Source: a virus. From it: a DNA stretch of 58,909 bases. How positions within the stretch are numbered: the first letter of the stretch is position 1; each line of letters opens with the position of its first letter. The notes below the pieces were generated by a model. It worked only from the letters and a program-made list of their open reading frames with translations, was not told the origin of the DNA and did no database searches. Position numbers and translations under genes: made by a program. Positions 1,521-49,858 of the stretch are shown in pieces. The DNA lies in the IMG/VR virus record IMGVR_UViG_3300045988_121717. One strand, given 5' to 3'.

Positions 1521-1956
1521 CTTCGTCCTCCTTATAATCATCCGGGTCAATATCGAACTTCTTCAGCCGCTTGCCGATGAACTCATCCATGGAGTCGTAG
1601 TCGAACATGACATCGCTATCATCGTACAGCGACCAAACAATGTCATCCACAACGCTCGGAGTGAGCAGGTCTTCAGGGATGCAGAAAATCTCCTTCAGCC
1701 GGAACGGAACTTCCTGCTTGATGAATCCAAGCAGCGGATGTACGTTCTCATCATCAGAGTCTTTCGTTCGCGCATTCCAGAGCTTTGCAGCCTGACCCTG
1801 TGCAATGAGCTTCGTACTATGCCATTTTTTAACGAAAACTCGCCCGCTTCTGGCTCCACAGCCAGAGCAAACGACGCGGTAGCTGTTTTCGCCAGCGTTC
1901 TCGATGTGGGCGCTTTTTCCGCAGAACGGGCATGACTTCAATTCAAAATTTGCCAT
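1513..1956 (-). CDS. Lar-family (restriction alleviation)-like zinc-ribbon protein with an acidic C-terminal extension
   Basis: N-terminus CPFCG...VVCSGCGA...AAKLWNAR matches the Lar/zinc-ribbon pattern. The C-terminal ~70 aa are very D/E-rich. Start MANFELK follows GTGAGGAGC. Confidence 0.55.
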   Translation of the reverse strand: MANFELKSCPFCGKSAHIENAGENSYRVVCSGCGARSGRVFVKKWHSTKLIAQGQAAKLWNARTKDSDDENVHPLLGFIKQEVPFRLKEIFCIPEDLLTPSVVDDIVWSLYDDSDVMFDYDSMDEFIGKRLKKFDIDPDDYKEDEDE

Positions 1957-1964
1957 AGTGCTCC

Positions 1965-2495
1965 TCACTTTCTGTCAATCAAATTCATGCACAACTCCTT
2001 GTAAACGTCACGCTGCGCACACACCATAATGTACTCGTGGTCGTCGTGGCTGCTGGAAGCCCCCCCTACGGAGATGTCGGTCTTTTCGGCGGGTGCTTCG
2101 GGGACCGCAGGAACGGTCGTGGCTGCCCTCTCCTTTTCCTTTGCGGCAGCAAGGTAGGAATCGAGGCCAAGGCTGATGAGCATACCAGTTTCGATCTCGC
2201 TCATCTCGTTCTTTGTGAGCTTGCCAACGTAGTCGTTCATGCGGAGCTTGTCAACCGTGAAGACCTGCTCGCAGATTGCGGTGGAGGGCAGACGCGCGGT
2301 TTCGATGTGGATGTGCGTGGGAAGAGGCTTCTTCTCCTTCGTAGTCAGGTAGACGACCTCCAGAGTGCTGGAATACTTGTTGTTCTGGTCGTTGCTGACG
2401 ATGATGCCGGGGCGACCGCTGTGCTGCTCACTGCAAATCTCGCAGCCTTCAGGCAGGACATAGTAAATTTCTCCGCGATAAAACATACCATTCAT
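1965..2495 (-). CDS. PemK/MazF-family toxin-like protein with a ~60-aa C-terminal extension
   Basis: RGEIYYV...CSEQHSGRPGIIVSND...PTHIHI...ICEQVFTVDKLR...G matches the MazF/PemK fold pattern. RBS AAAGGAGAA. Confidence 0.7.
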   Translation of the reverse strand: MNGMFYRGEIYYVLPEGCEICSEQHSGRPGIIVSNDQNNKYSSTLEVVYLTTKEKKPLPTHIHIETARLPSTAICEQVFTVDKLRMNDYVGKLTKNEMSEIETGMLISLGLDSYLAAAKEKERAATTVPAVPEAPAEKTDISVGGASSSHDDHEYIMVCAQRDVYKELCMNLIDRK

Positions 2496-14061: not shown

Positions 14062-15861
14062 ATGGGGCAAACCAATATCAGGTACACCGATGAGAGCATC
14101 AACACGGCGTTCAGTGCCTTCTACGTCATCCCGGAATACCAGCGCGAGTACGTCTGGGAGAAAACGCAGGTCAAGCAGCTTATGGAGGACCTGCTGGATG
14201 CCTACACAAGCGACAAGAACAAGGCGTACTTCCTTGGCACGATCGTAACGTGCAGTGCCAATGGCAATTTCGAGTTGGTGGATGGGCAGCAGCGGTTGAC
14301 CACGTTCTTTATCATCCTCTGTATCGTGAAGAAGCTGTACGCGGAGTACGGCATCCCGACAGCATCCATCGACCAGCTCATCTGCGGAACGAGCCTCAAT
14401 CAGTACGGCGTTCCTGTCACGCGGTATCGGCTGGAGCTTCAGCACCAGAACGTCACAAACTGCCTTGAACTGATTGCAAAGGGCGAGCCTCGACCGAGCG
14501 ATGTTTCAAAAACAGGAGGCCGCCTTTTCGATGCAGCGGAAGCCGTCGAGCAGTTCATGCGGGATAACTTCGCCGATATCACAGCTTTCGGTCCGTTCGC
14601 GGCATTTCTGCTGTACAAGTCCAGCTTCGTGCGTATCGACACGCAGAACGTGGTGGACGCGCTGAAAATGTTCGAGACCATCAACGAGCGCGGCAAGAAC
14701 CTCGACCCTATCGACCTGCTGAAGAATATGCTGTTCACAAACGTGCAGCCGAACCAGTTCGCCGCGCTGAACGCAGAATGGAAATCGGTCATCAACGAGC
14801 TGGAGAGGATTGATGAGAAGCCACTCCGCTTCCTGCGCTACTTCATCATGGCAAAGTACGACGTTTCAAAAGAGCCGAATGGTGTTCTGCGTGAAGACCG
14901 CATTTTCGCATGGCTCAAAGCAAACAAGAGCCAGTGTCCATACGCCTCCGCTCCGTTCAAATTTGTCCAAACAATGAAGGATTCTGCCACTTTCTATGCA
15001 AATTGCAAGAAGCCTGCAAATTCAGTCGGGGGGGGGGTACGAAGCCTAAAAAATATTCCCCTGCTGGCTGGCCTCTCCTACCGCCTGCATTTGATGCTTT
15101 TGCTGGCAGCCTCAAATATGGAGCCTGCCGTTCTTGACCGTTTCGAGGTGCTGGTGGAGTCCATCGTTTACTACACGGTCATCAACCATGTGACGACGAA
15201 CGACATCGAGCGCATTTTCGTCAAGTGGTGCGGTCAGGTCCGGGGTATCAAAACAGCCGATGAGCTGGACACGTTCATCAGCACCGCAGTCCTGCCGGAA
15301 GTCACGCGCTGGAAAACGGACAACGAGGCAAACTTCATGCGGCTCGGCCTGAACAGTATGCAGCAGTACAGAGTCAAGTTCATCATGGCAAAGCTCGCTG
15401 CCTATGTGAACGGTCTTCGCACAGGCAACGGCATGACCGATGAGCCGACCAGCGAGGAACTGTCTCGCCTCATTCCTTGGTCGTTCGAGATCGAGCACAT
15501 CATGCCGCAGACCTGTGCAGACAAGGCGCAGTACGGCGTAGATGAGGACGAGTTCTCCATCATCGTAAACCGACTTGGCAACCTCACGCTGCTGGAAAGC
15601 ACCATCAACCGCTCGATTCGCAATAGCACCTATCAGGACAAATGCGTGGATTACAGGCAGTCCACAGTGTACCTTACATCCTCCCTGCCGGAGCTGGTGG
15701 ACGTTGGCAAAAACAACGCCATCACGAAGGCAAACGAGAAGCTGAAGGCGTGGCCAGAATGGAACAAGACCTCCATCATGGAGCGTCAGGCCATGCTGTA
15801 CAAGCTGAGCGAGGAAATCTGGATGAGTGATGCCATCTGGAATCCGAAGAAATCTGCATAA
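14062..15861 (+). CDS. DUF262 (ParB/Srx-like NTPase) + DUF1524 (His-Me/HNH-like nuclease) protein, GmrSD-like type IV restriction/defence enzyme
   Basis: N-terminus YVIPEYQREYVWEK...LGTIV...LVDGQQRLTTFFI. C-terminus FEIEHIMPQ...LGNLTLLESTINRSIRN. 599 aa. Confidence 0.8.
   Translation: MGQTNIRYTDESINTAFSAFYVIPEYQREYVWEKTQVKQLMEDLLDAYTSDKNKAYFLGTIVTCSANGNFELVDGQQRLTTFFIILCIVKKLYAEYGIPTASIDQLICGTSLNQYGVPVTRYRLELQHQNVTNCLELIAKGEPRPSDVSKTGGRLFDAAEAVEQFMRDNFADITAFGPFAAFLLYKSSFVRIDTQNVVDALKMFETINERGKNLDPIDLLKNMLFTNVQPNQFAALNAEWKSVINELERIDEKPLRFLRYFIMAKYDVSKEPNGVLREDRIFAWLKANKSQCPYASAPFKFVQTMKDSATFYANCKKPANSVGGGVRSLKNIPLLAGLSYRLHLMLLLAASNMEPAVLDRFEVLVESIVYYTVINHVTTNDIERIFVKWCGQVRGIKTADELDTFISTAVLPEVTRWKTDNEANFMRLGLNSMQQYRVKFIMAKLAAYVNGLRTGNGMTDEPTSEELSRLIPWSFEIEHIMPQTCADKAQYGVDEDEFSIIVNRLGNLTLLESTINRSIRNSTYQDKCVDYRQSTVYLTSSLPELVDVGKNNAITKANEKLKAWPEWNKTSIMERQAMLYKLSEEIWMSDAIWNPKKSA
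15028..15037 (+). repeat. G10 homopolymer inside the DUF262/DUF1524 ORF (encodes GGG)
   Basis: cagtcGGGGGGGGGGtac read directly. The frame is currently open. Confidence 0.9.
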
Positions 15862-17593: not shown

Positions 17594-17963
17594 TGAGAAC
17601 CACCTCCACAAACTCCATAAAGGCACCTTCCAGTGCCTCGACGCGCTCAGACAGCGTAGGCTCATCATTGCGCTTGGCATCGTCGTCTTCGGCCTCCTGC
17701 TGGGTCTTGCCGCTGGCAATGTCCCACCAGTAATCGAACTTGGCAGTCACCTCATCGGCAGTCACTTCACCGCGATAGCGGTACTGCATCTCCTCGCAGG
17801 AGAACGCAGTGGACTCCTGCTCGACGGAGTTGCCGTCGTCATCGGTGACGGTGTTGGTCAGGGTGCATTCCTTGATGTCACGGCGCAGAATGATGTCCGT
17901 GCCAGTGCTGACAGGATGCACCTCAACAGCCAGAGGCTGCAACGAGTAGAATTCTTTGCTCAT
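17586..17963 (-). CDS. Hypothetical acidic protein (125 aa), in the XkdW-like position
   Basis: ORF track. RBS AAAGGAG. Overlaps the RT 3' end by 41 nt. Confidence 0.55.
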   Translation of the reverse strand: MSKEFYSLQPLAVEVHPVSTGTDIILRRDIKECTLTNTVTDDDGNSVEQESTAFSCEEMQYRYRGEVTADEVTAKFDYWWDIASGKTQQEAEDDDAKRNDEPTLSERVEALEGAFMEFVEVVLNG

Positions 17964-19164
17964 TTTTCACATACTCCTTTCGGCCATGTGTACTAACGCT
18001 CTGACGAGCGAGCTTCAATAACGGATAAAAGCGATATGCTACGGCGAACTTCACACTATCGGAGAACTTCACCCAGCCCTTGTAGGCCGTGATGCGGCAA
18101 GCTCTCCACCACGGCAGATAGCCGAGCCGCTTGATGTCATTCCATGCTCGCAGGACTTGCTTGCGGATGCGTAGGAAAATGCGGCCTCGGATGATGGTGT
18201 AGGTTCTGCGAATGACAAAACCCATCATGTCCACGCCTTCGGTGCGCCGGTGGCTGCCAGCGGCTCTCTCGCGGTGTACCTCTTTCTCCTTATCGAACGT
18301 GTCTGGCCGGTAAATCTGCCACGCAGGTTTGATATTGATGCCGAGGTGGTCCTTAGCCCACTTGGTCGATTTTCGTATGACCTTGACGAGCTGCGAATAG
18401 AATCCGAACAAAGAAAAATCGTCCGCATAGCAGACGACGGCTTTGACGTATGCGGTTCGCACTCCACGGCGGCATTGAGCAAGGCTCATTGCATACCGCA
18501 GAACATAGGACATGACGTAGTTGAACAGCCATGTGGAGAGGTAGCTGCCAATGCAGAGATGGTCGCCCGGATAGTTCTCCATCAACGCGCCGACAAACCA
18601 CAGCAGCGGCTTATTCTTACCGATGTCGCGGTTCAGCAGGGTCATGGAGCATTCGACAGTGACAGAGGGGTACGCCTTCTTGACATCGCCTTTCGCAACG
18701 GTGATTTTGCATTTCAGCTTGATGCGGAGAATGCGTTCGATTTTCCGTTTGCCGAGGACTTGGCCGCGTCCGGGGATACTGCCGTATTGAACCGGGAGCA
18801 GTTTGGCGCGGAACAGGGGCATCAACGCTTCAACAGCGATGTACTCCAAGACCTGCTGTTTCGGGCTTTCTTGGCAGATGTCACGGAGCTTCTGCGTAAG
18901 ACCGTCAACACGCTGGAAGCAGCGAATCGGCTTCAGGCCAAGGTTTCGCTCGTTGATGCAGGATGTGAGATAGTCGTTGTAGGCGGCGATGGCTGCGTTG
19001 GTTTTTGGCCGGTCATTGTGCTTGTCCAGCCGCTCAAAAGCAATCTCGCTTTTCTTTATCAGGCCAGTATGAACCAGTTCGCGCTGGAAGTCGTTCCGTT
19101 TCAACTTGCCCTTGAATGCTTTAACGGTAGCAGGAAGATTGAATGCTGCGGAGTCAATGTTCAC
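17923..19164 (-). CDS. Reverse transcriptase of a diversity-generating retroelement
   Basis: VVCYADDFSLFG (YxDD motif), SIPGRGQ, IGSYLSTWLFNYV (DGR-type motif 4-like). Lies immediately 3' of the template repeat. GTG start. Confidence 0.85.
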   Translation of the reverse strand: MNIDSAAFNLPATVKAFKGKLKRNDFQRELVHTGLIKKSEIAFERLDKHNDRPKTNAAIAAYNDYLTSCINERNLGLKPIRCFQRVDGLTQKLRDICQESPKQQVLEYIAVEALMPLFRAKLLPVQYGSIPGRGQVLGKRKIERILRIKLKCKITVAKGDVKKAYPSVTVECSMTLLNRDIGKNKPLLWFVGALMENYPGDHLCIGSYLSTWLFNYVMSYVLRYAMSLAQCRRGVRTAYVKAVVCYADDFSLFGFYSQLVKVIRKSTKWAKDHLGINIKPAWQIYRPDTFDKEKEVHRERAAGSHRRTEGVDMMGFVIRRTYTIIRGRIFLRIRKQVLRAWNDIKRLGYLPWWRACRITAYKGWVKFSDSVKFAVAYRFYPLLKLARQSVSTHGRKEYVKNEQRILLVAASGC

Positions 19165-19338
19165 CTCCGCTGGTTTGCATCTCGTGATCGTACTTTGCTA
19201 CCTTCTTTCTGTATATCATCTGGTTACTATCGGTGGTCTTCCCTTTCAGTACCAACCTCCGCCGGTTTCAAGCAATTTTCGCACATAAGCGAGGATGCTG
19301 TGGTGCAATGATTTTCGGATATACATTCCGCTCGTAAC

Positions 19339-19492
19339 CAGTTGCGCCAAGAGAGCCGTTCCAGTTCGCGTTCCCGACCGAATTGTTCGAGTTGCGGCAA
19401 GCCACACCGTCATTGCCACCGTCATTGAGGTTGCCGAAGCACCACCCAGCACGGAGACCAGAGGTGGACGGTTCGCAGTTGAAGCCGGCCTT
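19339..19492 (-). repeat. DGR template repeat (TR), non-coding
   Basis: 154 bp with 139/154 identity to 19598-19751. All 15 differences have T on the + strand (A on the minus strand) in this copy. Confidence 0.9.
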
Positions 19493-19521
19493 CTTAATCA
19501 CCACAGTACCCTTTTCGTTTC

Positions 19522-19556
19522 TTGTACAAAAAACGATGAGGGGCTTGCTGCCCCTC
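19522..19556 (-). terminator. GC-rich hairpin plus T-run downstream of the DGR target gene (terminator and/or DGR homing hairpin)
   Basis: GAGGGGC-agcaa-GCCCCTC, followed by atcgtttttt on the minus strand, about 27 nt after the target stop codon. Confidence 0.65.
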
Positions 19557-19583
19557 TTGTCCAGAGGACAATTCACCCCGCCG

Positions 19584-21284
19584 TTACCCGGCAATGTCAG
19601 GTGCGCCAAGAGAGCCGGACCAGTCCGCGTACCCGACCGAATTGTCCGAGTTGCGGCAAGCCACACCGTCACTGCCACCGCCAAGGAGGCCGCCGAAGCA
19701 CCACCCAGCACGGAGACCAGAGGGGGACGGTCCGCAGTAGAAGCCGGCCTTACAGCCGACTCCACTGCCGCTTGCCTGAACGCCAGTGGGCCACTCGATG
19801 TCTCCGCAGTCGGTATCCTCGATATACTGCCAGTGCCAAGAGGTCATAAGGTCTTTCGGCAGAGTCAGCGTCAGACCTTCCTGCTTGACATAATCCTCGG
19901 TGATGGCAGCGCCGCTGACCTTGCTCTGGTCCTTGCAGACGTAGCAGTCAAAGGTGAAGTCCTCATTGGCATCCTTGCCCCACTGCCACAGCTCATCGCT
20001 GATGATGAGGTAGGAGCCGTTCATAAACTCGACCTTCTGGAGCAGGCCGGGTTCCTTGCCGTTGGTGGCATTGTACTTGCTGCCGTCGGTACCAAGAACG
20101 TCGTCGTTCCAGCCGGAGAAGTACGGCATAGTGCTCAGGAGAGTCTGGTCTTTCACGGTATCAAACGTGTCGGTGACATTGACATACACGGCAGAATACT
20201 GGCTGTCAGCGATAGTCACAGGCTCAATGGCGGTAATGCGGACCTCGGTAGCAATATCGTGAACATCGGCCACGTTGCGGTCAGTAGAGCCATCGGTGTC
20301 AGTGCCGATAGACACCGCACTGCCAACGAACAGGTTCGCGGCCTGAGCTACGGTCAGAATGAACCGCTTAACGCCGGTCTCTGCAACGGCTGCCTTGTAC
20401 TGGTAGTTGTAGGAGGTGCAGCCCTCGATGGTGCCGGAGTTGCCCTTGCGAGCGTACTTCAGGCGCATCATGCGGTCGAGGAATTTCATCAAAGACCCAG
20501 AGCCGCCGGAATACTGAGTGCCGCGAGTGCGCCACAGGGTTACGCCGGAGGTATGACTGGTGTAGTTGATTGGTGCGAGGCCGGTGCCGCAGGTGGCCTT
20601 GCCGCCAACCTTGCCAGCGTAATACTTCGGGTGGGCGATATAGGCGTAGACATGGCCGGTGCGGTCCTTGCCCTCGCGCCACTGCTTGAAGCCGGTGGTC
20701 TGGTGGCACTTCATCTGGAGGTGCTGGTAGCCGTCAGCCCGCCATTCACGGACAAAGGTGTTCTTCTGCAACACCCAGCACAGGTGCTCGCCAGAGCGAA
20801 CATCGTCCAGATCGTCGATATGCTCGACGTAGAAGATTTCGTGGCTGCCGTCTTCCTTCTTCTCGGCAGCGACCTCAACGCACCAGAACTGGGGCAGGTG
20901 TGCGAAGTCGTCGCGGCCCGGAGTGGATGCGGTAGACGGAGTGCAGACGAGGCCAACGCTGTCATCGGTCAGCTCGCCGATAGCACTGGTGCTGGTGGCA
21001 TACAACGGAACGGTGCAGCCGTGAACGCGGTCATCGTCCAGCACGTTGCCAAACCAGCGTTCGAGCATCTGAACCTTGCTGTACTTGCTGGAATCGTACT
21101 GAGCCTTCCACCATTCGATGAACAGGCTGTCCACCTCATCCTTGGTGGTAGCCTGAGCGACGAGGTACTTATAGCACAGGTCAGCCGTGCCGGGGGTGGT
21201 ACAGCCGGCAGCGATAGCCCGCTGGATTTCGTTGGCGTGTTTCAGCGTGGTGTCGCGGGGGAAATTGATTACCTGATCTGCCAT
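19584..21284 (-). CDS. Tail fibre / receptor-binding protein, DGR target with a C-terminal variable (C-type-lectin-like) region
   Basis: 566 aa, located after the baseplate genes. The C-terminus GLRAGWCFGGLLGGGSDGVACRNSDNSVGYADWSG carries the VR. RBS AAGGAGGA. Confidence 0.8.
   Translation of the reverse strand: MADQVINFPRDTTLKHANEIQRAIAAGCTTPGTADLCYKYLVAQATTKDEVDSLFIEWWKAQYDSSKYSKVQMLERWFGNVLDDDRVHGCTVPLYATSTSAIGELTDDSVGLVCTPSTASTPGRDDFAHLPQFWCVEVAAEKKEDGSHEIFYVEHIDDLDDVRSGEHLCWVLQKNTFVREWRADGYQHLQMKCHQTTGFKQWREGKDRTGHVYAYIAHPKYYAGKVGGKATCGTGLAPINYTSHTSGVTLWRTRGTQYSGGSGSLMKFLDRMMRLKYARKGNSGTIEGCTSYNYQYKAAVAETGVKRFILTVAQAANLFVGSAVSIGTDTDGSTDRNVADVHDIATEVRITAIEPVTIADSQYSAVYVNVTDTFDTVKDQTLLSTMPYFSGWNDDVLGTDGSKYNATNGKEPGLLQKVEFMNGSYLIISDELWQWGKDANEDFTFDCYVCKDQSKVSGAAITEDYVKQEGLTLTLPKDLMTSWHWQYIEDTDCGDIEWPTGVQASGSGVGCKAGFYCGPSPSGLRAGWCFGGLLGGGSDGVACRNSDNSVGYADWSGSLGAPDIAG
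19598..19751 (-). repeat. DGR variable repeat (VR), within the last ~56 codons of the target gene
   Basis: Counterpart of the TR. It ends 11 nt before the stop codon. TR Asn (AAC) codons correspond to Tyr/Gly/Leu/Ser/Asp in the VR. Confidence 0.9.
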
Positions 21285-42825: not shown

Positions 42826-44613
42826 TTACTTGTTCCAGTAGCTATCCTTCGACAGCCCGGTGCTTGCCGGGCGGCTGACGGAGTAGCCGTTTTCGATCTC
42901 TGCAAAGGCAGAGGAGCTTGCATCGACCATATCCTTGAACTTGGACTCAGGGAACGATTCAAGCTCGGTGAAGTACATCTCATTCCAGTCTGCCAGCAGG
43001 ACATCCACATTGCCGTGCTGCCACTGGGCTGCAAACGGCTCGGCGCGTGTTTCCTTACTGCCGGACTCGGCGATGGTCTTAACGACAAAACCGGCCAGCA
43101 TTTTGACGAAGGACTGAGCCTGCGCCTTACCTGCTTGGCCGGGGTCTTTGGGCAGTCGTTCGACGACCCGCTTATACTTCTTCTTGTCGATTTGGGCTGT
43201 CTGCTTGATGTGAGTGCGCACATCGTCCGCAGACAGGCGTTGGTTCGTGACGTTGGCGACAATGTACCGGCCATTGCGCCGCTTGCCGATAAGGACGCTG
43301 GCAGTGTATGCCGGGTCGCCATTCTCGTCCTCCGAGGTGGCGGCCAAGTCCCAGCCACGCGCCCATGTGATGACATCATTGGGCAGTTCATCAAGAAGCG
43401 TGACCTGACTGCGCTTGAAGAACATACCGGCGGCGGGCTTGATCTTCCAGTTGCCGTTGAGCAGACGCTCTCGTTCGACCTCAAGCAACGCATTCAGGTT
43501 GGCGATGTATCCGGGGTCACTCTCCATCAGCACCTTGTTATCCTGAAGGCGAGAAGCGATGAACGTGACGCTCTTGCACTGCTCGATGGGAATGTCATGC
43601 TCCTCGGCCAGTTTTTCAGCGGTATCTGCGAAGTAGATGGTGTCGTTGAGGACACACATATACCGCACGAGGCCGCTGCGCTCAGGAATCGGGTAGCCGG
43701 TCTCTTGGTCAATCCACCACGAGATGAAGTCGGCCACCCAGCTATCCGCATCAGGGTTGCAGGTGGCACGGACATAGGGCCGGATGCCGCAGGTGGTACG
43801 GTTTCGGGACAGCATATACAGGAACTGCTTGCGGGTGAAATGGGTCAGCTCGTCAAAGCCAAGGTAACAGATTTCTGTACCCTGCCAACTGCTAAGGTCA
43901 TCGTCGCAACTGATGTGGGCGAAGTTCAGTCTCCCTCCCCCGCCGAATGTCCAGTGCAGTTTCGGAGTCTTGCCGGGGGTGGCATCTGGAACGAGATCAT
44001 AGATTTTATGGCTCGCATCCCACAGGCCGCCCTCAGCCGTAATCTGGTTGTAGTTGTGGCGGAAGATAACGCCGCCCCAGCCTTTCACATTGCGGTTTCG
44101 TAGTCCCTCCAGCAGAAGCGCATAGGTTTTACCACCACCGGCAGCTCCACCGTATATCACGATGTCTGCTTTCGAGGCCATGAACGCGGTCTGCGGTCCG
44201 GCCTGTGGCGAGAGCGTTTTTTCGGTACGCTTGTCGCGGCCGTTGTCGGGGATGCAGATGGGAGGATATTCGACCTCGAATACCGTATCATCGCCAGCTC
44301 CGACGGCTCCGCCGAAGTCTCCAGTCAATTCTCCGAGAAGCCTGATGGCTCCAGTGTCGCCTTCGAGCAATGCCTTCTGCATGAGCCGGACAACGATGGC
44401 AGTGTTGTAGTTCTGGTCTTCAGACTGAACTCCAAAGTTCTTGAGGTTCTGCTTGTTGGTCTCGCCGACGACAGGCATCTCCATGAGCATCTTTGCCATC
44501 TGCTTCATGTTCTTCTTAGCCCGCCGCGCCTCGCCAGAAGCTATTCCGCCCTTTCGACCGTTCTCGCTGGCCTGTTCAGACGTAGGCACTATCAGGTTGC
44601 TCGGATTTGACAC
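42826..44613 (-). CDS. terL: Terminase large subunit with a fused TerS-like N-terminal region
   Basis: Walker A IVIYGGAAGGGKTYALLLEG lies at about residue 160. The first ~120 aa (...SEQASENGRKGGIASGEARRAKKNMK...) resemble small-subunit N-termini. GTG start at 44613 follows AGGGGTGAG (track ORF runs to 44643). Confidence 0.8.
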   Translation of the reverse strand: MSNPSNLIVPTSEQASENGRKGGIASGEARRAKKNMKQMAKMLMEMPVVGETNKQNLKNFGVQSEDQNYNTAIVVRLMQKALLEGDTGAIRLLGELTGDFGGAVGAGDDTVFEVEYPPICIPDNGRDKRTEKTLSPQAGPQTAFMASKADIVIYGGAAGGGKTYALLLEGLRNRNVKGWGGVIFRHNYNQITAEGGLWDASHKIYDLVPDATPGKTPKLHWTFGGGGRLNFAHISCDDDLSSWQGTEICYLGFDELTHFTRKQFLYMLSRNRTTCGIRPYVRATCNPDADSWVADFISWWIDQETGYPIPERSGLVRYMCVLNDTIYFADTAEKLAEEHDIPIEQCKSVTFIASRLQDNKVLMESDPGYIANLNALLEVERERLLNGNWKIKPAAGMFFKRSQVTLLDELPNDVITWARGWDLAATSEDENGDPAYTASVLIGKRRNGRYIVANVTNQRLSADDVRTHIKQTAQIDKKKYKRVVERLPKDPGQAGKAQAQSFVKMLAGFVVKTIAESGSKETRAEPFAAQWQHGNVDVLLADWNEMYFTELESFPESKFKDMVDASSSAFAEIENGYSVSRPASTGLSKDSYWNK

Positions 44614-44683
44614 ATCTATCTCACCCCTATTCTCCGGCAGCAATAGAAAAAGCCGAGGCGGTCAGGCCCCGGCTTATCAGCGG

Positions 44684-45403
44684 TTACTTCTTGTACTTTT
44701 CGTAGGTTTCAGGTGTCCATTCGGTTCCGCCGTTGGTCGGGTCAACCGGCCCTCGGTCTGATTGGAACTTCTGAAGGCGGCGTTCATCGTTCGGCTTCAT
44801 GTATCCTTGGCTGCGCTGATGGTTGTACCAGCCGTCGTAGTTGCCGTAGTCGAACAGGTTCATTTGCCGGGGTTCCAGAGCTTCGTTCTCCTCTCTGAAG
44901 AAATCCATCTGCGTTGCGCCGTTTCTGCGGCCACGCCGGGTGTGGACATCAAAGACGTAATCGGGAACATCGAACTGCGAAACAGCCTTCAGCCGCTCGA
45001 CTTCGTGGTAATCAACGAACGCTTCATACTCGGCATCGCTGAGGGGCTGGTCGCCCCACATGAAGTTACAGGCAACATAGTCGGCATCGCGGTTCTTCTT
45101 GGCCATGCACAGCAGTACAACGGCCTTTGCGATAAACAGGTCGTTGGTTTCACCGGGCTTGTTCCGCTGATTCACATAGTCGTCAGCCTCTTTCAAGGCC
45201 ATGATCTCCTTGGTCATAATGCCGTAGCAGTCCTCAGCGGAAACGGTCAGCAGCCGCTTCCACAGGTACGCCCTGTATTTGACGGACATCTCATTTGCGG
45301 CGTATGCTGCATGAGGGATGTCACACCGGCGAATCGCCTTCTGAATCATCGAGGACATTTCAAACAGGTTATACCCATTTTTCGTCAATGCTTCAAATGC
45401 CAT
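44684..45403 (-). CDS. MgsA/RarA C-terminal-domain-like protein lacking the AAA+ module
   Basis: FEMSSMIQKAIRRCDIPHAAYAANEM...LLTVSAEDCYG...LFIAKAVVLLCMAKKNRDADYV parallels the MgsA_C pattern (SA.qKSiRGSD.dAAlYW...AsEDIG...KSN). The ATG at 45403 lies 9 nt after GGAGG. Confidence 0.5.
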   Translation of the reverse strand: MAFEALTKNGYNLFEMSSMIQKAIRRCDIPHAAYAANEMSVKYRAYLWKRLLTVSAEDCYGIMTKEIMALKEADDYVNQRNKPGETNDLFIAKAVVLLCMAKKNRDADYVACNFMWGDQPLSDAEYEAFVDYHEVERLKAVSQFDVPDYVFDVHTRRGRRNGATQMDFFREENEALEPRQMNLFDYGNYDGWYNHQRSQGYMKPNDERRLQKFQSDRGPVDPTNGGTEWTPETYEKYKK

Positions 45404-45468
45404 GAACAAAAACCTCCAATTTTTTTGTTTGTTTATAGTATAATTCTACCAAAGGAGGTCTGCGTCCG

Positions 45469-46704
45469 TCAAGCATTTTTCATACGATGTTCCGATGTTT
45501 TTTCGAGATAACGACCAAACATATCAGTGAATCCCTCAGCCTCGCGCAGCACTTCTCCAGTGACCTCAGAAACCACTTTCGGGCGGGGTACGATGAACTG
45601 GCGGGACGAGCTGATGGAGTATGCGCCAACATTGTCAAAGACCAGCCTATCGCCGATTGCAAACTCGCCAGAGATGCCTTTGACGAGATAGTCATATTCG
45701 AGGCAGGTGTCGCCGCCGATGATGACATCAGTGAATGTGCAGGTGTTGTCATTCATGTGGACGACTTCAGGAACGAGCTTCTTCATGTCGGCAATGACAC
45801 CCATGTGGTTGGATGCGCAGTTTGCTGTGAGGTAAATCTGCCCGCGCACGAACTTGATGTTGGTGATGGTGGCAGCCATCTTCATGGTGTTGCCGACAAG
45901 CGCAGTGCCGGGTTCGATCATCAGCATCACATCCTCATCGGGGAACGCTTTCTTCATCGCGCCGGCAATAATCTGAGCGTACTCCTCATAGCCGCCGTAG
46001 GCATAGCCATTGAACTGCTCTGCCAACTCAGGAGCCATCGGGCCGAACATACCGCCGCCAAGGTCGATATACTTCGCGCCGTAGGTCTTGGCCAGCTCAA
46101 TCATGCGGTCGATCTTGTTCCTCCAGTATTTCGGCTGGCGGGCGGACCCGATATGGCACTGGAAGCCACGGAACTCAAGGTGCGTGTTATGCTGGAAAAA
46201 GGCCATCGCGCCACTGAAGTCATCACTGTCAATGTCAATGCCAAACCGGGACTTCAGGTCATTCCCGGCATCGAACGTAACGCGGATGCCGATAGGAATG
46301 GTTACGCCCTGCTCCTTGGCCATGAAGTAGATGTCCCGCAGCTCATCGTAGTTGTCAACATTGACGAAGCCGCCGCAGGATGCCAGCTTGACCTTTTCTG
46401 CGGTGTTCGGGATGACACCATTGTAGACGATGCGGTCCGGCGTGAAGCCAAGCTCCATTGCGTACATCCGCTCATACGGAGAAACGACCTCAGCCAGCAG
46501 ACCAGCCTCGTTCACGATCTGGCAGATGTCTGCGAGGTAGTTGGTCTTGAAGCTGTACGCGGCGTAGGTGTTGCCGTAGTAGTGGTGGAACGCCTTTCCC
46601 ATGTTCACGATGTTCTCGTAGAGAGTGTTCTCGTTGAACAGGTACATGGGCGAATCATCTCTTGACCATAATTCGCGCAAAATTTCGTTTGTAGTTGTAG
46701 TCAT
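45469..46704 (-). CDS. Fold-type III PLP-dependent decarboxylase (Orn/DAP/Arg/carboxynorspermidine decarboxylase family)
   Basis: Motifs YSFKTN (PLP lysine), CHIGS, DLGGG, EPGTALV and GGDTCLEYDYL appear in the canonical order. 411 aa. Confidence 0.75.
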   Translation of the reverse strand: MTTTTNEILRELWSRDDSPMYLFNENTLYENIVNMGKAFHHYYGNTYAAYSFKTNYLADICQIVNEAGLLAEVVSPYERMYAMELGFTPDRIVYNGVIPNTAEKVKLASCGGFVNVDNYDELRDIYFMAKEQGVTIPIGIRVTFDAGNDLKSRFGIDIDSDDFSGAMAFFQHNTHLEFRGFQCHIGSARQPKYWRNKIDRMIELAKTYGAKYIDLGGGMFGPMAPELAEQFNGYAYGGYEEYAQIIAGAMKKAFPDEDVMLMIEPGTALVGNTMKMAATITNIKFVRGQIYLTANCASNHMGVIADMKKLVPEVVHMNDNTCTFTDVIIGGDTCLEYDYLVKGISGEFAIGDRLVFDNVGAYSISSSRQFIVPRPKVVSEVTGEVLREAEGFTDMFGRYLEKTSEHRMKNA

Positions 46705-47380
46705 AGTACTTCCCCCATTTGTTCTTCATGGCCTCGACGAGAATCATGTGGCCTTCTCTCGTGCGGCTCGCGCCTTCGTTCAGGTCCATGCCGGCCTTGG
46801 CGCACAGGTAGCGCGGCTGGAGGATAATGCGGTTGTGCAGAAGCTCCTGCATCATCATGTCAACATCGGAGGCCGCAGGGTCATCCGGGTCGTAGGTGGC
46901 CTTCAGAGCCTTCTTGTTTATCCAGCGGATGTGACCGGGCATCCCGACGAACTTAAACTCGCAGTCATACGCATAGGGAGCCATCGTAGGCTGGTCAAAT
47001 GCGTAGCCGATGCCGAGGTCGTAGATGAGCTGGGCAATGCGCTCGATCTCAGCCGTCACGCGCTCCTTGTCGGGGCGTTTATCGGGCAACTCAAGGTAGG
47101 TCGTATCGCTCATGCGGTAGACGAACTTTTCGATGTCGTCATCAGCAATGAATATCACATCTTCCGGCGTGTTGTGGATTATCCAGTAGAGGGTAGACAT
47201 GAAGCTGCGTACAGCTCCATCGGGGATGACGAGAAGGTCATCGACACCGGCGGCTCTATACGCAGCTTCTTCTTCCTGTCTTACGACGTAGGTACAATAT
47301 TCAAACTGGTGCTTCGTCAAAATCTTGTTCGGTCGGCGGTACGACATACAGTAGATGTTAAACGAAGTATTCCGACTCAT
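46655..47380 (-). CDS. Unknown enzyme-like protein with a DDD motif (possible GT-A-like nucleotidyl/glycosyl-transferase fold)
   Basis: 241 aa. Contains VIFIADDDIEKF. It overlaps both neighbours (23 and 50 nt), implying translational coupling. Confidence 0.4.
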   Translation of the reverse strand: MSRNTSFNIYCMSYRRPNKILTKHQFEYCTYVVRQEEEAAYRAAGVDDLLVIPDGAVRSFMSTLYWIIHNTPEDVIFIADDDIEKFVYRMSDTTYLELPDKRPDKERVTAEIERIAQLIYDLGIGYAFDQPTMAPYAYDCEFKFVGMPGHIRWINKKALKATYDPDDPAASDVDMMMQELLHNRIILQPRYLCAKAGMDLNEGASRTREGHMILVEAMKNKWGKYYDYNYKRNFARIMVKR

Positions 47381-48383
47381 AGTTCTTGCTCATGCGGAGC
47401 TTGTAGTTGATTTCAGGGTGGATGTTCTCGACATCATAGCCGAGGAGCTGGCGGCACCGCAGGTACGGCAGGTTCAGGCCAGCCTTGGCGATGAACGGCA
47501 GGGATGCACTCAGGCGCGGGTTGGTCTCCAGCAGCTTCACGCTGCCATCTTCCTTCAGGATGAAGTCGAAGCACACATTGCCGTCCAGCCCGGTGTCAGC
47601 GACGATCTGCTTGGCAATGGCGAGAGCCTGTTCGTTCTGCTTGATGCCAGCGAACATCGCGCTGCCAAAGGCCATCAGGTAGCCCTCAAAGCCGAGGGCG
47701 TGGAGGACGCGGCCATGGTCTGCCAGTACGCACATACTGTAATCCAGACCTTCCTCATACTCCTGCATGATGATGTCCTCATGGCAGTTCTTTGCCAGCT
47801 CCAGCAGCATATCGAACGTGATATAGCGGTTCATGCCGAACTTGTTGTAGATGGTCAGGTCGCGGCCCTTCTCCTCGTCAATGATGCAGAAACCGAGGCC
47901 GCCGCAGCGGTTCGGGAGCTTGCAGCACATGGGCTTCTTCGGGTAGCCAATCTCATCAGCAAACTGGAAGAAGTCGAGGGGCTTCTTGCAGACCATCTGC
48001 TTCGGCATCAGGTCGGGGTAGTGCTTTGCCAGCTCGACCTTGTTGCCAGAGGCCAGAATGGACTCCATAGAGGAGATGGACACCTTAACGCCGTGGCTCT
48101 CAAGCAGCTCGCGGTTCTCTGCCATGATAGGCAGCTCTGCGGTGATGAACGGCAGGATGACATCGACCTTCTCCTTCTCGCAGATGTCGATGACGGTCGG
48201 GATATAGCTTTCCTCGGTGATGCGAGGAACAACATAGCCAGCGTCAACGCCCTTTCGGAGCAGCGCAGTGTCATCGCAGTTGATGCCGACGACGTAGATT
48301 TCCTCGCCGTCGTAGTTGTCCTTCAATGCACGGATGAGGTCATACGAGTGCATCGAGCAGCCGGTAATCAGGACTCTAATCAT
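47358..48383 (-). CDS. ATP-grasp family ligase
   Basis: 341 aa. N-terminal Rossmann-like MIRVLITG, a central K..P..CGGLGFCII, and the C-terminal LLETNPRLSASL typical of ATP-grasp enzymes. Confidence 0.7.
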   Translation of the reverse strand: MIRVLITGCSMHSYDLIRALKDNYDGEEIYVVGINCDDTALLRKGVDAGYVVPRITEESYIPTVIDICEKEKVDVILPFITAELPIMAENRELLESHGVKVSISSMESILASGNKVELAKHYPDLMPKQMVCKKPLDFFQFADEIGYPKKPMCCKLPNRCGGLGFCIIDEEKGRDLTIYNKFGMNRYITFDMLLELAKNCHEDIIMQEYEEGLDYSMCVLADHGRVLHALGFEGYLMAFGSAMFAGIKQNEQALAIAKQIVADTGLDGNVCFDFILKEDGSVKLLETNPRLSASLPFIAKAGLNLPYLRCRQLLGYDVENIHPEINYKLRMSKNYESEYFV

Positions 48384-49032
48384 TTTCTTCCTCTTTCTCC
48401 GGGTTTTCCGGGTTTTCCGGGTCTGTTTGTGGAGCGTCTTCCTTGGGTACGATTTGGGCTTTCATATCGTCATACCAGACGGCTCTTGCCTTTATCCTCC
48501 GCTGCTTGGCAACAAGCACTTTCGCGCCGTCGATGCCGAGTGCGCGGATAAGATTCAGGTAGTCAACCTCATTCCGGCAGACGATCATAACATAGTCATA
48601 TTTCTCATAGCGAATCGGCTCGATGTCCTTGATCTTCCGCTCGTCAGGATTCTTTTCGAGCATATCGAGGCCGAGGTCCACTGTGAGGTCGGCAGTCCAG
48701 TCGGCGAGCAGGTCGAGGTCCCATTCACCGGCGTGGGTGTTGTCCTTGATGTTGATGGCCCGCAGCTCTGCATCGGTGTAGCCAATGAGCCGCTTGCAGT
48801 CCACCATGATGTCAGGGTCTTTCTTAGTGAGGATGATGCTGCGTTGATTTCCGGCAATCACGTTGTCGTTCTCGTCGATGAGGAAGATGCCAAAGTCGCC
48901 GAACATCTCAAGCGAGCGTTCCAGCTCCTCGGCCTTTTTCTTCGTGATCTTTCTGGGGTTTCCAAAACCGTGCTTCAGGTCACCAACGCGCATTTTTTCA
49001 CATCTGATGCACCGTTCCTTGCGTTCTTCCAT
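48376..49032 (-). CDS. ParB/Srx N-terminal-domain protein (218 aa)
   Basis: GNPRKI...LERSLEMFGDFGIFLIDENDNVIAGNQR matches the ParB-like nuclease/NTPase domain seen at the N-termini of phage DNA-modifying enzymes. No methylase domain follows. Confidence 0.6.
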   Translation of the reverse strand: MEERKERCIRCEKMRVGDLKHGFGNPRKITKKKAEELERSLEMFGDFGIFLIDENDNVIAGNQRSIILTKKDPDIMVDCKRLIGYTDAELRAINIKDNTHAGEWDLDLLADWTADLTVDLGLDMLEKNPDERKIKDIEPIRYEKYDYVMIVCRNEVDYLNLIRALGIDGAKVLVAKQRRIKARAVWYDDMKAQIVPKEDAPQTDPENPENPEKEEEND

Positions 49033-49042
49033 AGCGTTCTCC

Positions 49043-49076
49043 TAAAACAAAAAGACAGCTCGTAATGAGCTGTCTT
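49043..49076 (-). terminator. Intrinsic terminator abutting the RBS of the ParB-like gene
   Basis: AAGACAGCTC-attac-GAGCTGTCTT, followed by TTTGTTTT and then AGGAGAA-N6-ATG on the minus strand. Confidence 0.7.
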
Positions 49077-49236: not shown

Positions 49237-49827
49237 TTATTGCTCAGAAAACCTCACTCCGTCGATGCCGAAGAACAAAACAGCGAGTTCTTCGTAGGCG
49301 GTCTTGATGTCGCGGAATACCGTGCGGACGACTACATTCTCCATCTCGGCAATGTCCTCGGCGGTCTTAGACTCGTCCTCAGACAGGTACATCCAGTAGA
49401 TGACCCTGTACCGCCGCTGGCCTTCAGGGGACCTGTTGCAGTCCTTCTTGTAGACCTCCAGCATTGCGTCAATGTGCTCGATCATCAGCTCGGTACGAGC
49501 CACCCGGTCTTTGATGCTGACGACCTCAAGTTCCCCGCTGCGGTAGATTCCCTGCATCAGCTCCAGCAGCTCAACAAGGGTCTCGTTGGTGCTGGTGTCC
49601 TTGCCGTACACGCTGCTCACGGTCATCTTCTTGAACCGCCGGTAGTTTTTCAGCAGCATCTTCGCGCTGTTCACAACGCGGTGATGCCGCTCTCTGCGGG
49701 CTTTGCCATCCTGCTCCTGCTGCCGCTCAAGTTCCTTTCGGTACGATTCGACAGCGGTTTCGGATGCCAGCCGGACGATGGCTTCCAGCTCAGGTGTGAG
49801 CTGCCGGGCGTTGTTTTCTGGCTCCAT
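49237..49827 (-). CDS. ArpU/RinA-like late transcription regulator (sigma70 region-4-like HTH)
   Basis: The C-terminus SKTAEDIAEMENVVVRTVFRDIKTAYEEL is sigma region-4-like. It is the last gene before the packaging region. The ATG at 49827 follows GAAGGAGGTG. Confidence 0.6.
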   Translation of the reverse strand: MEPENNARQLTPELEAIVRLASETAVESYRKELERQQEQDGKARRERHHRVVNSAKMLLKNYRRFKKMTVSSVYGKDTSTNETLVELLELMQGIYRSGELEVVSIKDRVARTELMIEHIDAMLEVYKKDCNRSPEGQRRYRVIYWMYLSEDESKTAEDIAEMENVVVRTVFRDIKTAYEELAVLFFGIDGVRFSEQ

Positions 49828-49858
49828 GGGAACCACCTCCTTCTCTTACAGCGAGAAC

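Follow-up and report, generated by a model that had tools for sequence, protein, structure and literature searches.

The window considered here, 58,909 nucleotides of viral DNA (IMG/VR record IMGVR_UViG_3300045988_121717), belongs to a temperate myovirus prophage of gut Oscillospiraceae in which five tightly packed minus-strand genes separate a putative late regulator from the terminase, raising the question of what a set of enzymes might do at this position. A preliminary description, made from the sequence alone, had proposed a candidate DNA hypermodification pathway. The five open reading frames are present as described, with a codon-usage gene call backing 5 of 5, and their coordinates reproduce the overlaps of 8, 23 and 50 nt, beyond which come a 59-nt gap and, directly ahead of TerL, a 40-nt gap (Table 1). 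The true start of the ParB-like frame is probably Met14 (48993). The upstream 199-aa gene had been called ArpU-like, a label that has found no support, with phrog_1558 its only match and none obtained in Pfam, NCBIfam or the PDB. Homologues of this gene (30-43% identity) hold the same position in related loci, and a sigma factor has been annotated there in Microbacterium phages. Downstream, the first ~135 aa of TerL form a separate ORF in relatives. The hairpin in the 40-nt gap has a stem of 10 bp, 7 of them GC pairs, and then a T-run; terminator-like sites are, in total, no more numerous in this region than shuffled sequence would lead one to expect, and the hairpin at the upstream end is identified by its position only.

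Table 1. The five-gene block and its flanks (positions counted from the first letter of the window).
Feature	Position	Strand	Evidence
Putative late regulator, 199 aa (context, outside the enzyme set)	49237..49836	-	phrog_1558, E 2e-41, family without assigned function
Terminator-like hairpin, interval between regulator and ParB-like gene	49052..49076	-	consensus scan: 10-bp stem, then T-run
ParB/Srx-like protein, 218 aa (core)	48376..49032	-	phrog_620, phrog_498, family profile
ATP-grasp ligase, 341 aa (accessory, tailoring)	47358..48383	-	PF21360, PF15632, PF02655
TAGT-type GT-A glycosyltransferase, "DDD" protein, 241 aa (core, catalytic)	46655..47380	-	PF20691, AF2 model, structure neighbours
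Fold-type III PLP decarboxylase, 411 aa (accessory, tailoring)	45469..46704	-	PF02784, NCBIfam and PDB matches
MgsA_C-like stand-alone helical protein, 241 aa (core)	44684..45409	-	phrog_16866, Foldseek, profile A4
Terminator-like hairpin, 40-nt gap between MgsA_C-like gene and TerL	44650..44675	-	consensus scan, position only
TerL with fused TerS-like N-terminal extension (downstream anchor)	42826..44643	-	Terminase_6N + Terminase_6C; phrog_979, 8e-154

Comparison of more than 200 related loci, with 91 non-redundant loci counted, has revealed a widespread, undescribed modular phage cassette, of which the block represents one variant; the literature yielded no description of its glycosyltransferase, ParB-like and MgsA_C-like module. 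Well over 100 independent phage or prophage loci carry the gene set next to the terminase, which indicates that the arrangement is not due to chance, and the cassette always stands at the start of the late/packaging operon. The core comprises the ParB-like protein, a TAGT-like glycosyltransferase (GT) and the MgsA_C-like protein. GT and MgsA_C-like genes occur throughout, in essentially every locus adjacent to each other or with 1-2 tailoring genes between, a co-occurrence partly built in as both served as search queries; the ParB-like gene, which was never a query, is found in 91 of the 91 loci, always beside the terminase. A minimal form of three genes exists (loci L162/L163), and the core is kept in very distant relatives, the hosts being Bacillota, Bacteroidota and Spirochaetota, together with those of cultured lytic Microbacterium phages. 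Homologues were never seen in chromosomal polyamine or peptidoglycan loci, 31 of 31 GTDB matches being terminase-adjacent prophage loci, and none of the loci compared was a cellular polysaccharide locus. The preliminary description was therefore right to see a phage-specific enzyme cassette beside packaging genes, although the five do not make up a single fixed pathway. The ATP-grasp protein is present in 60/91 loci and the decarboxylase in 49/91, where an ATP-grasp is found in all 49, and the two constitute one of several interchangeable sugar-tailoring sets. Replacement enzymes in other variants include DegT, 4,6-dehydratase, PglD, PIG-L, WbqC, Glf, a UGDH-like protein and GNATs, in addition to PglF/E/D-like enzymes, a FemAB-like protein and a SAM-methyltransferase-like protein. 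Since these accessories are nucleotide-sugar and sugar-tailoring enzymes, a sugar would really be transferred and decorated.

At the centre of the system stands the protein whose DDD motif had been noticed initially and left unassigned, and which has turned out to be a TAGT-type GT-A glycosyltransferase. Together with the ParB-like protein, it thus falls into a family relevant to such a pathway, and not into an unrelated, non-enzymatic one. In Pfam it matches PF20691 (TAGT) at 9e-5 and 22.9 bits, under the 27.5 cut-off, and TAGT is the sole GT family matched by its relatives (29 of 35 members). This match spans the nucleotide-sugar-binding half only, leaving the C-terminal acceptor-binding half unmatched, and, being below threshold and so confined, it says little on the acceptor. 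The AF2 model (pLDDT 90.8) resembles GT-A enzymes in the PDB at a TM of about 0.5 (cellular GT-A enzymes 0.45-0.55; top match KdsB), whereas in BFVD it resembles TAGT-domain phage proteins and a beta-glucosyl-HMC-alpha-glucosyltransferase at a TM of 0.66-0.78 (E 1e-13 to 1e-8). With phage TAGT-type proteins as its best structural neighbours, the model suggests membership of the DNA-glycosyltransferase clade. Residues R34 and D80-D82 are invariant in the family alignment, and the GT-A fold and R...DDD motifs are common to it and to the phage 5mYOX(TET)/ThyS-associated GT-A DNA glycosyltransferases (TAGT, base-J JGT-like, T-even alpha-glucosyltransferase). Their gene clusters, like the cassette, hold extra sugar-modifying enzymes and have ParB-like and terminase genes nearby (10.1101/2023.12.21.572611). 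Unlike them, the cassette lacks a dioxygenase, ThyA homologue or methylase by which a hydroxyl acceptor could be formed, its GT is obligatorily coupled to the MgsA_C-like protein, and its hosts are mostly strict anaerobes.

The two remaining core proteins had been correctly recognised. The ParB-like protein matches phrog_620 (5.6e-20) and phrog_498 (2.6e-19), the latter being the N-terminus of ParB-methylase fusions and resembling its N-terminal domain, while the family profile (A3) matches CTP-binding ParB domains, namely those of MxParB (7bnk), Spo0J (6sdk) and Noc (E 2e-6), in an alignment limited to residues 8-98. It is laid out as an N-terminal nucleotide-binding domain, followed by a private, family-specific C-terminal domain; a search for an HTH DNA-binding domain in this protein gave no match, and its invariant residues are the N of the NPR motif, GxxR and N85. 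Phage clade E 5mYOX thymine dioxygenases have been reported to depend on short ParB-like proteins as obligate activators (bioRxiv 10.1101/2025.08.14.668559). These activators, for which MxParB and Spo0J are the nearest solved relatives, likewise combine a CTP-type N-terminal domain with a C-terminal domain, are devoid of an HTH and have their gene next to that of a DNA-modifying enzyme within phage hypermodification clusters. In contrast to them, the partner here is the GT with the MgsA_C-like protein and not a 5mYOX, and CTP binding is predicted from sequence.

As for the MgsA_C-like protein, the top 14 Foldseek matches in the PDB are RarA/MgsA C-terminal fragments, profile A4 matches 3ctd at 2e-9 and RarA 3pvs at 3e-7 (residues 248-348), and phrog_16866 is matched at 1.8e-42. 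Its AF2 model is all-helical (pLDDT 80.6), and at E<=1e-3 the family runs to 1659 representative clusters. Homology to the MgsA_C domain of RarA/MgsA, an AAA+ replication-associated recombination protein, covers the N-terminal ~110 residues, with conservation of the SxxQKxIRRxD and SAEDxxG motifs. Unlike RarA/MgsA, the cassette protein has no AAA+ ATPase module, stands alone at 180-450 aa, sometimes carries the domain in duplicate and is, in its stand-alone form, confined to the phage cassette. As a domain of a DNA-replication/repair protein, MgsA_C counts in favour of a DNA target.

The accessory pair also bears out its initial assignments. The ATP-grasp protein matches PF21360 (PylC-like_N, 4e-18), PF15632 (ATPgrasp_Ter, 4e-14) and PF02655, with PRK12767-type NCBIfam matches under cut-offs; its variants share 30-75% identity among loci and are sometimes duplicated. 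The decarboxylase, whose position inside the cassette varies, matches PF02784 (Orn_Arg_deC_N) at 83.6 bits and, below the NCBIfam cut-offs, FslC (N-citrylornithine decarboxylase, 134 bits) and LysA (125), while in the PDB 7kh2 (FslC) reaches 124 bits, DAP and D-Orn/Lys decarboxylases <=65, and BtrK is a weak match. FslC acts as a decarboxylase on an amino acid whose side chain is already bound in an amide. In both FslA/FslC (rhizoferrin) and BtrJ/BtrK (butirosin, BtrJ being an ATP-grasp) a ligase attaches an amino acid through the side chain, after which the alpha-carboxylate is taken off by a PLP decarboxylase of fold-type III. Among characterised enzymes, FslC stands nearest to the one encoded in the window, although the score is far under the equivalog cut-off (134 vs 500 bits) and the substrates there are citrate or an acyl-carrier protein, presumably replaced here by a glycan on a macromolecule. 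The proposal that ligation precedes decarboxylation fits the data, namely the constant presence of an ATP-grasp and the kinship with FslC, and this step order may be retained as predicted from gene content, whereas direct attachment to the base may not.

Taken together, the best reading, given about an even chance of being correct, is that phage DNA receives a sugar once it has been replicated, and that this sugar is subsequently aminoacylated and decarboxylated. The cassette would act late in infection, glycosylating a macromolecule that is most likely the DNA of the phage itself prior to packaging, with the TAGT-like enzyme moving a sugar from a nucleotide-sugar supplied by host or phage. 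By analogy with the activators of phage thymine dioxygenases, the ParB-like protein is inferred to act as a nucleotide-gated partner or clamp, which might switch the enzyme on or move it along DNA, and the MgsA_C-like protein could be a third subunit serving as adaptor, as DNA or substrate binder, or in a step making the acceptor available. The ATP-grasp would join an amino acid to the sugar, either as an amide to a uronic-acid carboxylate or through a side-chain carboxylate to a sugar amine or hydroxyl, and the FslC-like enzyme would strip the free alpha-carboxylate, leaving a cationic or polar amine on the glycan; other phages carry different tailoring sets in its place.

That DNA is the target is what we infer, and several observations speak against it. 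As had been remarked, the usual companions are missing: Pfam scans of ~45 ORFs from the length of the prophage revealed no TET/JBP, ThyA-like enzyme, DpdA or C5-methylase. The annotation of Microbacterium phage KaiHaiDragon includes no acceptor-forming enzyme, and the three-gene minimal module has no room for one. To our knowledge, every characterised DNA glycosyltransferase uses a hydroxyl acceptor (5hmC, 5hmU, 5hoC), and we know of no precedent for direct glycosylation of a canonical base. Most hosts being strict anaerobes, O2-dependent dioxygenases cannot work there. With pI values of 4.9-6.2, the five range from acidic to neutral, and none resembles a DNA binder by charge. The tailoring chemistry, with bacillosamine-like sugars, galactofuranose and amidated uronates, is of a type usual for glycans on proteins and surfaces. 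In a survey of phage GT-A enzymes, contigs without 5mYOX or ThyS have been judged "less likely" to modify DNA (10.1101/2023.12.21.572611).

These observations lend some weight to virion-protein glycosylation, the principal competing reading, which nonetheless seems rather unlikely. Capsid or tail proteins would bear a diversified glycan, as in some actinobacteriophages, possibly for immune evasion or mucus adhesion, with the ParB-like and MgsA_C-like proteins as chaperone-like or scaffolding partners. The cassette heads the structural operon, its PglF/E/D-like, Glf and uronate-type enzymes are of the kinds that build glycans on proteins and surfaces, cluster EC Microbacterium phages hold the module and a further GT, and both the acidity of all cassette proteins and the missing DNA acceptor-forming enzyme agree with it. 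However, the specific relatives of the GT are DNA and not protein glycosyltransferases, ParB-like proteins do activate DNA-modifying enzymes and have, with a RarA-derived domain, no known role in protein glycosylation, and the cassette lies upstream of the terminase and not among capsid or tail genes. Modification of a host envelope polymer, resembling the TarP glycosylation of teichoic acid or polysaccharide, is improbable. It could block superinfection or keep progeny from adsorbing to debris, it had been raised in the preliminary description itself, phage GT-A enzymes resemble prophage TarP (preprint), and the FemAB-like, PIG-L, DAP-decarboxylase-like and ATP-grasp accessories resemble cell-wall enzymes. 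Yet membrane or flippase components are absent (0/5 proteins match a membrane-protein family), the genes stand by the terminase in the late operon and not in the lysogeny module, strictly lytic Microbacterium phages hold the module, host envelopes are unrelated (Bacillota, Bacteroidota, Spirochaetota, Actinomycetota), and the ParB-like and MgsA_C-like core would be left unexplained. Of similarly low probability is the synthesis of a soluble metabolite (for example a polyamine conjugate, a nucleoside-like molecule or a modified nucleotide-sugar) that might serve anti-defence or enter the capsid with the DNA as its counter-ion. The ATP-grasp matches the "Ter-operon" family linked to nucleoside-like metabolite synthesis, the decarboxylase falls in a polyamine/siderophore family (FslC), the ParB/Srx fold includes small-molecule NTP-dependent enzymes (sulfiredoxin, archaeal serine kinase), and the GT-A fold includes nucleotidyltransferases, with KdsB the top PDB match. 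Against this, the minimal module has no biosynthetic enzyme besides the GT, whose closest relatives act on DNA, and the extreme diversity of tailoring sets is more in keeping with an arms race over the surface of a recognised macromolecule than with a metabolite.

The pathway originally favoured, of ViI/M6 type, in which an amino acid is placed directly on a DNA base and then decarboxylated, is very improbable and largely refuted already by gene content: such pathways reportedly use a PLP enzyme to decarboxylate the tethered amino acid, and the dependency of the decarboxylase on the ATP-grasp fits, but a 5-hmdU source, P-loop kinase and amino-acid:DNA transferase are absent, the decarboxylase here is of fold-type III and FslC-like, and it and the ATP-grasp are dispensable accessories of a GT core. 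As interchangeable tailoring sets on that core, the two enzymes would most likely act on an amino acid borne by the sugar, and not by the base. Parallels for such a sequence exist in mycothiol/bacillithiol-type logic, where a GT is followed by a PIG-L/LmbE deacetylase, an amino-acid ligase and an acetyltransferase, and in capsular glucuronate, which is amidated by ATP-grasp amidoligases (Campylobacter Cj1438). Sister cassettes with GT, PIG-L, a ligase or WbqC/FemAB-like protein and GNAT, or with a UGDH-like protein, or with an ATP-grasp, would repeat this order of steps on a sugar. These parallels are drawn from gene content, and the acceptors are inositol, malate and capsule there, as opposed to a phage-specific macromolecule here.

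The five-gene block upstream of the large terminase gene (terL) is better described as a conserved glycosylation core, comprising a ParB-like protein, a glycosyltransferase (GT) and an MgsA_C-like protein, combined with an ATP-grasp/decarboxylase tailoring set, and it is widespread in gut prophages. A full-text search of the literature brought up no account of these genes as a set. The preliminary description had proposed a hypermodification pathway, an interpretation which holds in part, and the observation behind it has been confirmed, the five open reading frames (ORFs) being present precisely as described in both coordinates and overlaps, with a codon-usage gene call backing all of them. 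Four of the domain calls were correct, and the fifth protein, which had been left unassigned, has proved to be the GT, the key enzyme. The 199-aa gene upstream, formerly thought to encode an ArpU-like regulator, receives no backing for that role in Pfam, NCBIfam or the PDB, its sole match being phrog_1558, a family of unknown function.

The window is a temperate prophage of about 59 kb with nearly all genes on the minus strand, and a tail sheath, a baseplate J protein and a Mu gp48 homologue identify it as a myovirus type. A serine recombinase, a CI-like repressor, RecT with a PDDEXK exonuclease, a DnaC-like protein and RusA are also encoded. Within the block, overlaps of 8, 23 and 50 nt are followed by gaps of 59 and 40 nt up to terL. 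Two strong terminator-like hairpins have been detected in the gaps flanking the five genes; judged by position only, they suggest a unit under separate regulation or antitermination, or the borders of a cassette. TerL has 605 aa, and its N-terminal extension of approximately 135 aa corresponds to phrog_2412, a standalone small-terminase ORF in related phages, so that the window protein appears to be a TerS-TerL fusion. A role of the MgsA_C-like protein as the small terminase is rejected, in view both of this TerS-like part and of relatives in which a separate TerS lies between the MgsA_C-like protein and TerL.

Coordinates of the five-gene block and of other features in the window
Feature	Coordinates	Strand	Remark
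ParB-like protein	48376-49032	-	
ATP-grasp protein	47358-48383	-	
'DDD' protein (GT)	46655-47380	-	
PLP decarboxylase	45469-46704	-	
MgsA_C-like protein	44684-45409	-	
TerL	42826-44643	-	downstream of block
Terminator-like hairpin	49052-49076	-	
Terminator-like hairpin	44650-44675	-	
Diversity-generating retroelement	17923-21284		
Reverse transcriptase	17923-19164	-	
Template repeat (TR)	19339-19492		
Variable repeat (VR)	19598-19751		
566-aa ORF	19584-21284		
GmrSD-family protein	14062-15861	+	
Lar-like protein	1513-1968	-	
MazF/PemK-type toxin	1965-2495	-	

A search of the PDB with the sequence profile of the GT returned chance galectin matches only (E 0.1), an uninformative result which made a fold comparison necessary. 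The AF2 model (pLDDT 90.8) adopts a GT-A fold with a DxD (DDD) motif and an upstream Arg, and R34 and D80-D82 are invariant among 35 relatives. All Foldseek matches in the PDB are GT-A enzymes, the cellular ones aligning at a TM of about 0.5, and the BFVD neighbours reach TM 0.66-0.78 (E 1e-13 to 4e-9). Most of these are TAGT-domain ('TET-associated glycosyltransferase domain') proteins from phiRSL1 and uncultured phages, a further one being the PKO111 beta-glucosyl-HMC-alpha-glucosyltransferase, a T-even-type hmC-DNA glucosyltransferase. The GT also matches phrog_842, annotated with the same activity. Against the TAGT family itself (PF20691) it scores 22.9 bits, under the gathering threshold of 27.5, with profile positions 2-100 of 205 covered; 29 of the 35 relatives match TAGT (E<=0.05, lowest 4e-7), which is the only glycosyltransferase family matched. 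At the place of EDY/F, the third active-site motif reported for phage GT-A/JGT enzymes, the family carries invariant S171-D172-x-D174 and Q178-E179, as judged from the alignment only.

The two partner proteins have also been placed. The ParB-like protein matches phrog_620 (ParB-like) and phrog_498, a family that represents the N-terminal part of fusions between ParB and a methyltransferase, and a profile of 34 relatives (A3) matches M. xanthus ParB (7bnk), Spo0J (6sdk) and Noc at E values of 2e-6 to 2e-3. These are matches to the CTP-binding N-terminal domains, covering residues 8-98 only. No HTH DNA-binding domain was detected, because the matches to ParB structures are confined to the N-terminal domain and end near residue 98. 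Invariant positions in the family are N12 of the NPR motif, G48-x-x-R51 and N85. PF02195 is matched by just 4 of the 34 members, and the C-terminal portion of about 70 residues (125-190) is a conserved domain that is specific to these proteins. The MgsA_C domain derives from a replication/repair protein. The 14 best PDB fold matches of the 241-aa MgsA_C-like protein are RarA/MgsA C-terminal fragments, and a profile of distant relatives (A4) matches 3ctd at 2e-9 and residues 248-348 of RarA (3pvs) at 3e-7. The protein is all-helical, with no P-loop domain and no AAA+ ATPase module, and family members of 180-450 aa consist of MgsA_C repeats only. Many contain two to four tandem MgsA_C-like domains of approximately 120 aa (P0173, P0182, L079, L084 and L087; 337-450 aa), which suggests an oligomer or a repeat array as the functional unit. 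Among the 150 best representatives, internal duplications were the only multidomain forms, with no fusion to a GT or ParB domain. On one 2-kb metagenomic contig (L200, 1230-2027), too short to reveal its context, a very distant MgsA_C-like gene is followed by a DUF5131 (phage Gp37/Gp68) gene.

The composition of the core has been established by comparing more than 250 loci, fetched around GT or MgsA_C-like homologues from IMG/VR, GTDB genomes and public assemblies and scored with the window proteins and HMMs. At 90% identity the GT family comprises 288 clusters and the MgsA_C-like family 522; at 50% identity the latter has 1659 representative clusters (E<=1e-3). The ParB-like protein, which was never used as a query, is present in 91/91 non-redundant loci that extend far enough upstream. 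The GT and MgsA_C-like genes share a cassette almost everywhere, being adjacent or separated by one or two tailoring genes, and the cassette lies directly upstream of TerS/TerL in phages with at least three terminase types. A minimal ParB-GT-MgsA_C form is found at two loci (L162/L163), and environmental viromes contain very distant MgsA_C relatives around which the order ParB-GT-(UGDH-like)-MgsA_C is kept; for the very distant representatives retrieved by exact look-up, the contigs are too short to give context. A view of the ParB and MgsA_C genes as packaging genes flanking an inserted moron is not supported. Wherever the retrieved sequence extended across the cassette, a recognisable GT or a GT-sized gap lay between them. 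The sole exception is L135, a locus with neither ParB nor GT within 5 kb upstream of the MgsA_C gene.

Around this core, the accessory genes vary. The ATP-grasp gene occurs in 60/91 loci, with 30-75% identity across variants and duplication in some, and the decarboxylase gene in 49/91, always together with ATP-grasp (49/49) and in variable position. The window ATP-grasp protein exceeds the cut-offs of PF21360 (PylC-like_N, 65.7 bits), PF15632 (ATPgrasp_Ter, 52.9) and PF02655 (ATP-grasp_3, 29.3). Its companion is a bona fide fold-type III decarboxylase (PF02784, 83.6 bits, over threshold) with the motifs AYSFKTN, HIGS, DLGGG, EPG and GGDTC. By a wide margin, its nearest characterised relative is the N-citrylornithine decarboxylase FslC (124-134 bits), which is also its best PDB relative at 124 bits, compared with no more than 65 bits for the DAP decarboxylases; the score of 134 bits lies below the FslC equivalog cut-off of 500 in NCBIfam. 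Other variants carry a PglF-like 4,6-dehydratase, a DegT aminotransferase, a PglD-like acetyltransferase, a PIG-L deacetylase, WbqC-like and FemAB-like proteins, a SAM-methyltransferase-like protein, a short UDP-glucose-dehydrogenase-like protein and two kinds of GNAT. None of the accessory sugar enzymes of these variants was found in the window by tblastn. UDP-galactopyranose mutase (Glf), likewise missing from the window, occurs solely in ATP-grasp loci (24/24; e.g., L111, L122 and L172-L194), which hints at galactofuranose as the sugar, or as one sugar, of those variants. Since the accessories act on nucleotide-sugars or tailor sugars, transfer of a sugar would be followed by its decoration, which is under diversifying selection.

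All 31 genome matches (31/31) are prophage loci. Near-identical copies of the prophage, with 93-99% protein identity across the module, reside in Lawsonibacter asaccharolyticus and in a MAG carrying the label Faecalibacterium prausnitzii. Other variants reside in Oscillospiraceae, Lachnospiraceae, Peptostreptococcaceae, Bacteroidales (including the isolate Parabacteroides faecalis AGMB00274) and Prevotella and Treponema bins. Some of the MAG binning may be in error. Among cultured phages, no blastn match to the 6-kb region was obtained in 50,697 GenBank phages, nor a GT tblastn match at 1e-3, and the MgsA_C-like protein is the only module protein which found cultured relatives, in Microbacterium phages. 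Fifty-six cultured Microbacterium phage records (cluster EC, Quhwahvirus), lytic according to the cluster EC description, contain the module. In KaiHaiDragon it is located at the right genome end, adjoining the terminase across the ends, in the order sigma factor, ParB-like gp85, GT gp87, 'UDP-glucose dehydrogenase' gp88 and 'AAA-ATPase' gp89; these genes appear in the genome paper with no function assigned (PMC7302621). The gp89 product is 44% identical to the window MgsA_C-like protein, and the whole length of gp85 aligns with the window ParB-like protein (E 9e-15). An hhalign comparison of the GT family with the KaiHaiDragon GT also extends over the full length with DDD in register and is not significant (E 0.2), so the homology of the latter is positional and structural only.

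Taking these data together, we infer that DNA is the target of glycosylation. The only specific relatives of the GT are DNA glycosyltransferases, the MgsA_C domain originates in a replication/repair protein, and expression of the cassette with the packaging genes provides the right time for post-replication modification. The ParB-like domain is also fused to phage DNA methylases, and the architecture of the ParB-like protein is identical to that of activators of DNA-acting thymine dioxygenases, short proteins with a nucleotide-binding and a C-terminal domain and no HTH that are obligate for those enzymes (bioRxiv 10.1101/2025.08.14.668559). In the proposed mechanism, a complex of the ParB-like, MgsA_C-like and GT proteins would glycosylate the phage DNA. 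In the window, an amino acid would then be joined to the sugar by the ATP-grasp enzyme, the candidate linkages being a uronate amide, a sugar-amine amide or an ester, and its alpha-carboxylate would be removed by the FslC-like decarboxylase to leave an amine. Ligation is placed before decarboxylation because the decarboxylase strictly depends on ATP-grasp, and also because of the FslA/FslC and BtrJ/BtrK precedents. The strongest rival is glycosylation of a virion protein, which would suit tailoring enzymes typical of protein and surface glycans and a cassette heading the structural operon, but would leave the invariant ParB-like and MgsA_C-like partners unexplained. Modification of the cell envelope and synthesis of a soluble metabolite are less likely.

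The principal point against a DNA target is that no acceptor-forming enzyme, whether for 5hmC, 5hmU or 5hoC, has been found with the cassette. The DNA glycosyltransferases characterised so far all act on a hydroxyl that is already in place, in one of these three bases (PMC13326640). A Pfam search of approximately 45 ORFs across the prophage detected no TET/JBP, ThyA homologue, C5-methylase, DpdA or kinase, and none of the components of thymidine hypermodification (5hmdU source, P-loop kinase and AADT/aGPT-Pplase). Seed proteins and gene-order reading revealed no 5mYOX or ThyA homologue within +/-7 kb of more than 200 related loci, the annotation of KaiHaiDragon lists none, and the three-gene minimal module leaves no room for such an enzyme. 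Most hosts are strict anaerobes, in which, to our knowledge, TET-type enzymes cannot act, and we know of no precedent for glycosylation of a canonical base. It follows that the acceptor is a canonical base, that the MgsA_C-like protein supplies it, or that the target is not DNA. A speculative proposal, less likely than not yet of substantial probability, is a new mechanism by which, in phages of strict anaerobes of the gut, the three-protein machine would glycosylate DNA without prior hydroxymethylation or hydroxylation, acting on a canonical base or on an acceptor formed by the MgsA_C-like protein without O2. The ParB-like protein would then be a nucleotide switch, and the tailoring would be lineage-specific, yielding in the window an aminoacylated and then decarboxylated sugar.

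Phage glycosylation clusters linked to TET/ThyS resemble the module in their working and share two component types, a TAGT-like GT and a ParB-like partner. The module differs in having no acceptor-forming enzyme, in a TAGT score that is sub-threshold and limited to the donor-binding half, and in an additional, invariant standalone MgsA_C domain. Similarly, its ParB-like protein has the ParB box N-domain, C-terminal domain and lack of HTH seen in 5mYOX-type ParB-like regulators, but adjoins a GT and an MgsA_C-like protein rather than a 5mYOX. If DNA is the target, the module would represent a type of phage DNA hypermodification that is abundant both in the gut of humans and animals and among cultured actinobacteriophages, and that is missed by pipelines which seek TET or ThyA beside a glycosyltransferase. 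In a preprint on the mining of phage GTs, contigs without a neighbouring 5mYOX or ThyS, about 65% of GT matches, were set aside (10.1101/2023.12.21.572611). The module would also show DNA glycosylation by phages of anaerobes without oxygen-dependent enzymes, give the standalone MgsA_C domain its first function and add a further case to the recently discovered pairing of ParB-like proteins with enzymes that modify DNA. The exchangeable tailoring sets would amount to a natural collection of glycans attached to DNA or to virions, bearing on restriction and CRISPR evasion, Type IV restriction specificity, virome sequencing bias and phage engineering. Even if the target is the virion, the combination of a conserved core of three glycosylation genes with more than six tailoring variants is new, and the module can be tested in the cultured Microbacterium phages, which are BSL-1.

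Additional features have been observed in the window. The prophage carries, on the opposite strand, the gene for a Type IV (modification-dependent) restriction enzyme of the GmrSD family, which would be notable if the phage sugar-modifies its own DNA. Near the left window end, the gene for a Lar-like restriction-alleviation protein adjoins that of a MazF/PemK-type toxin. The diversity-generating retroelement consists of a reverse transcriptase gene and an adjoining 154-nt TR/VR repeat pair, in which each of the 15 differing positions is an adenine in the template; VR lies at the C-terminus of the 566-aa ORF, which is probably a receptor-binding tail protein.
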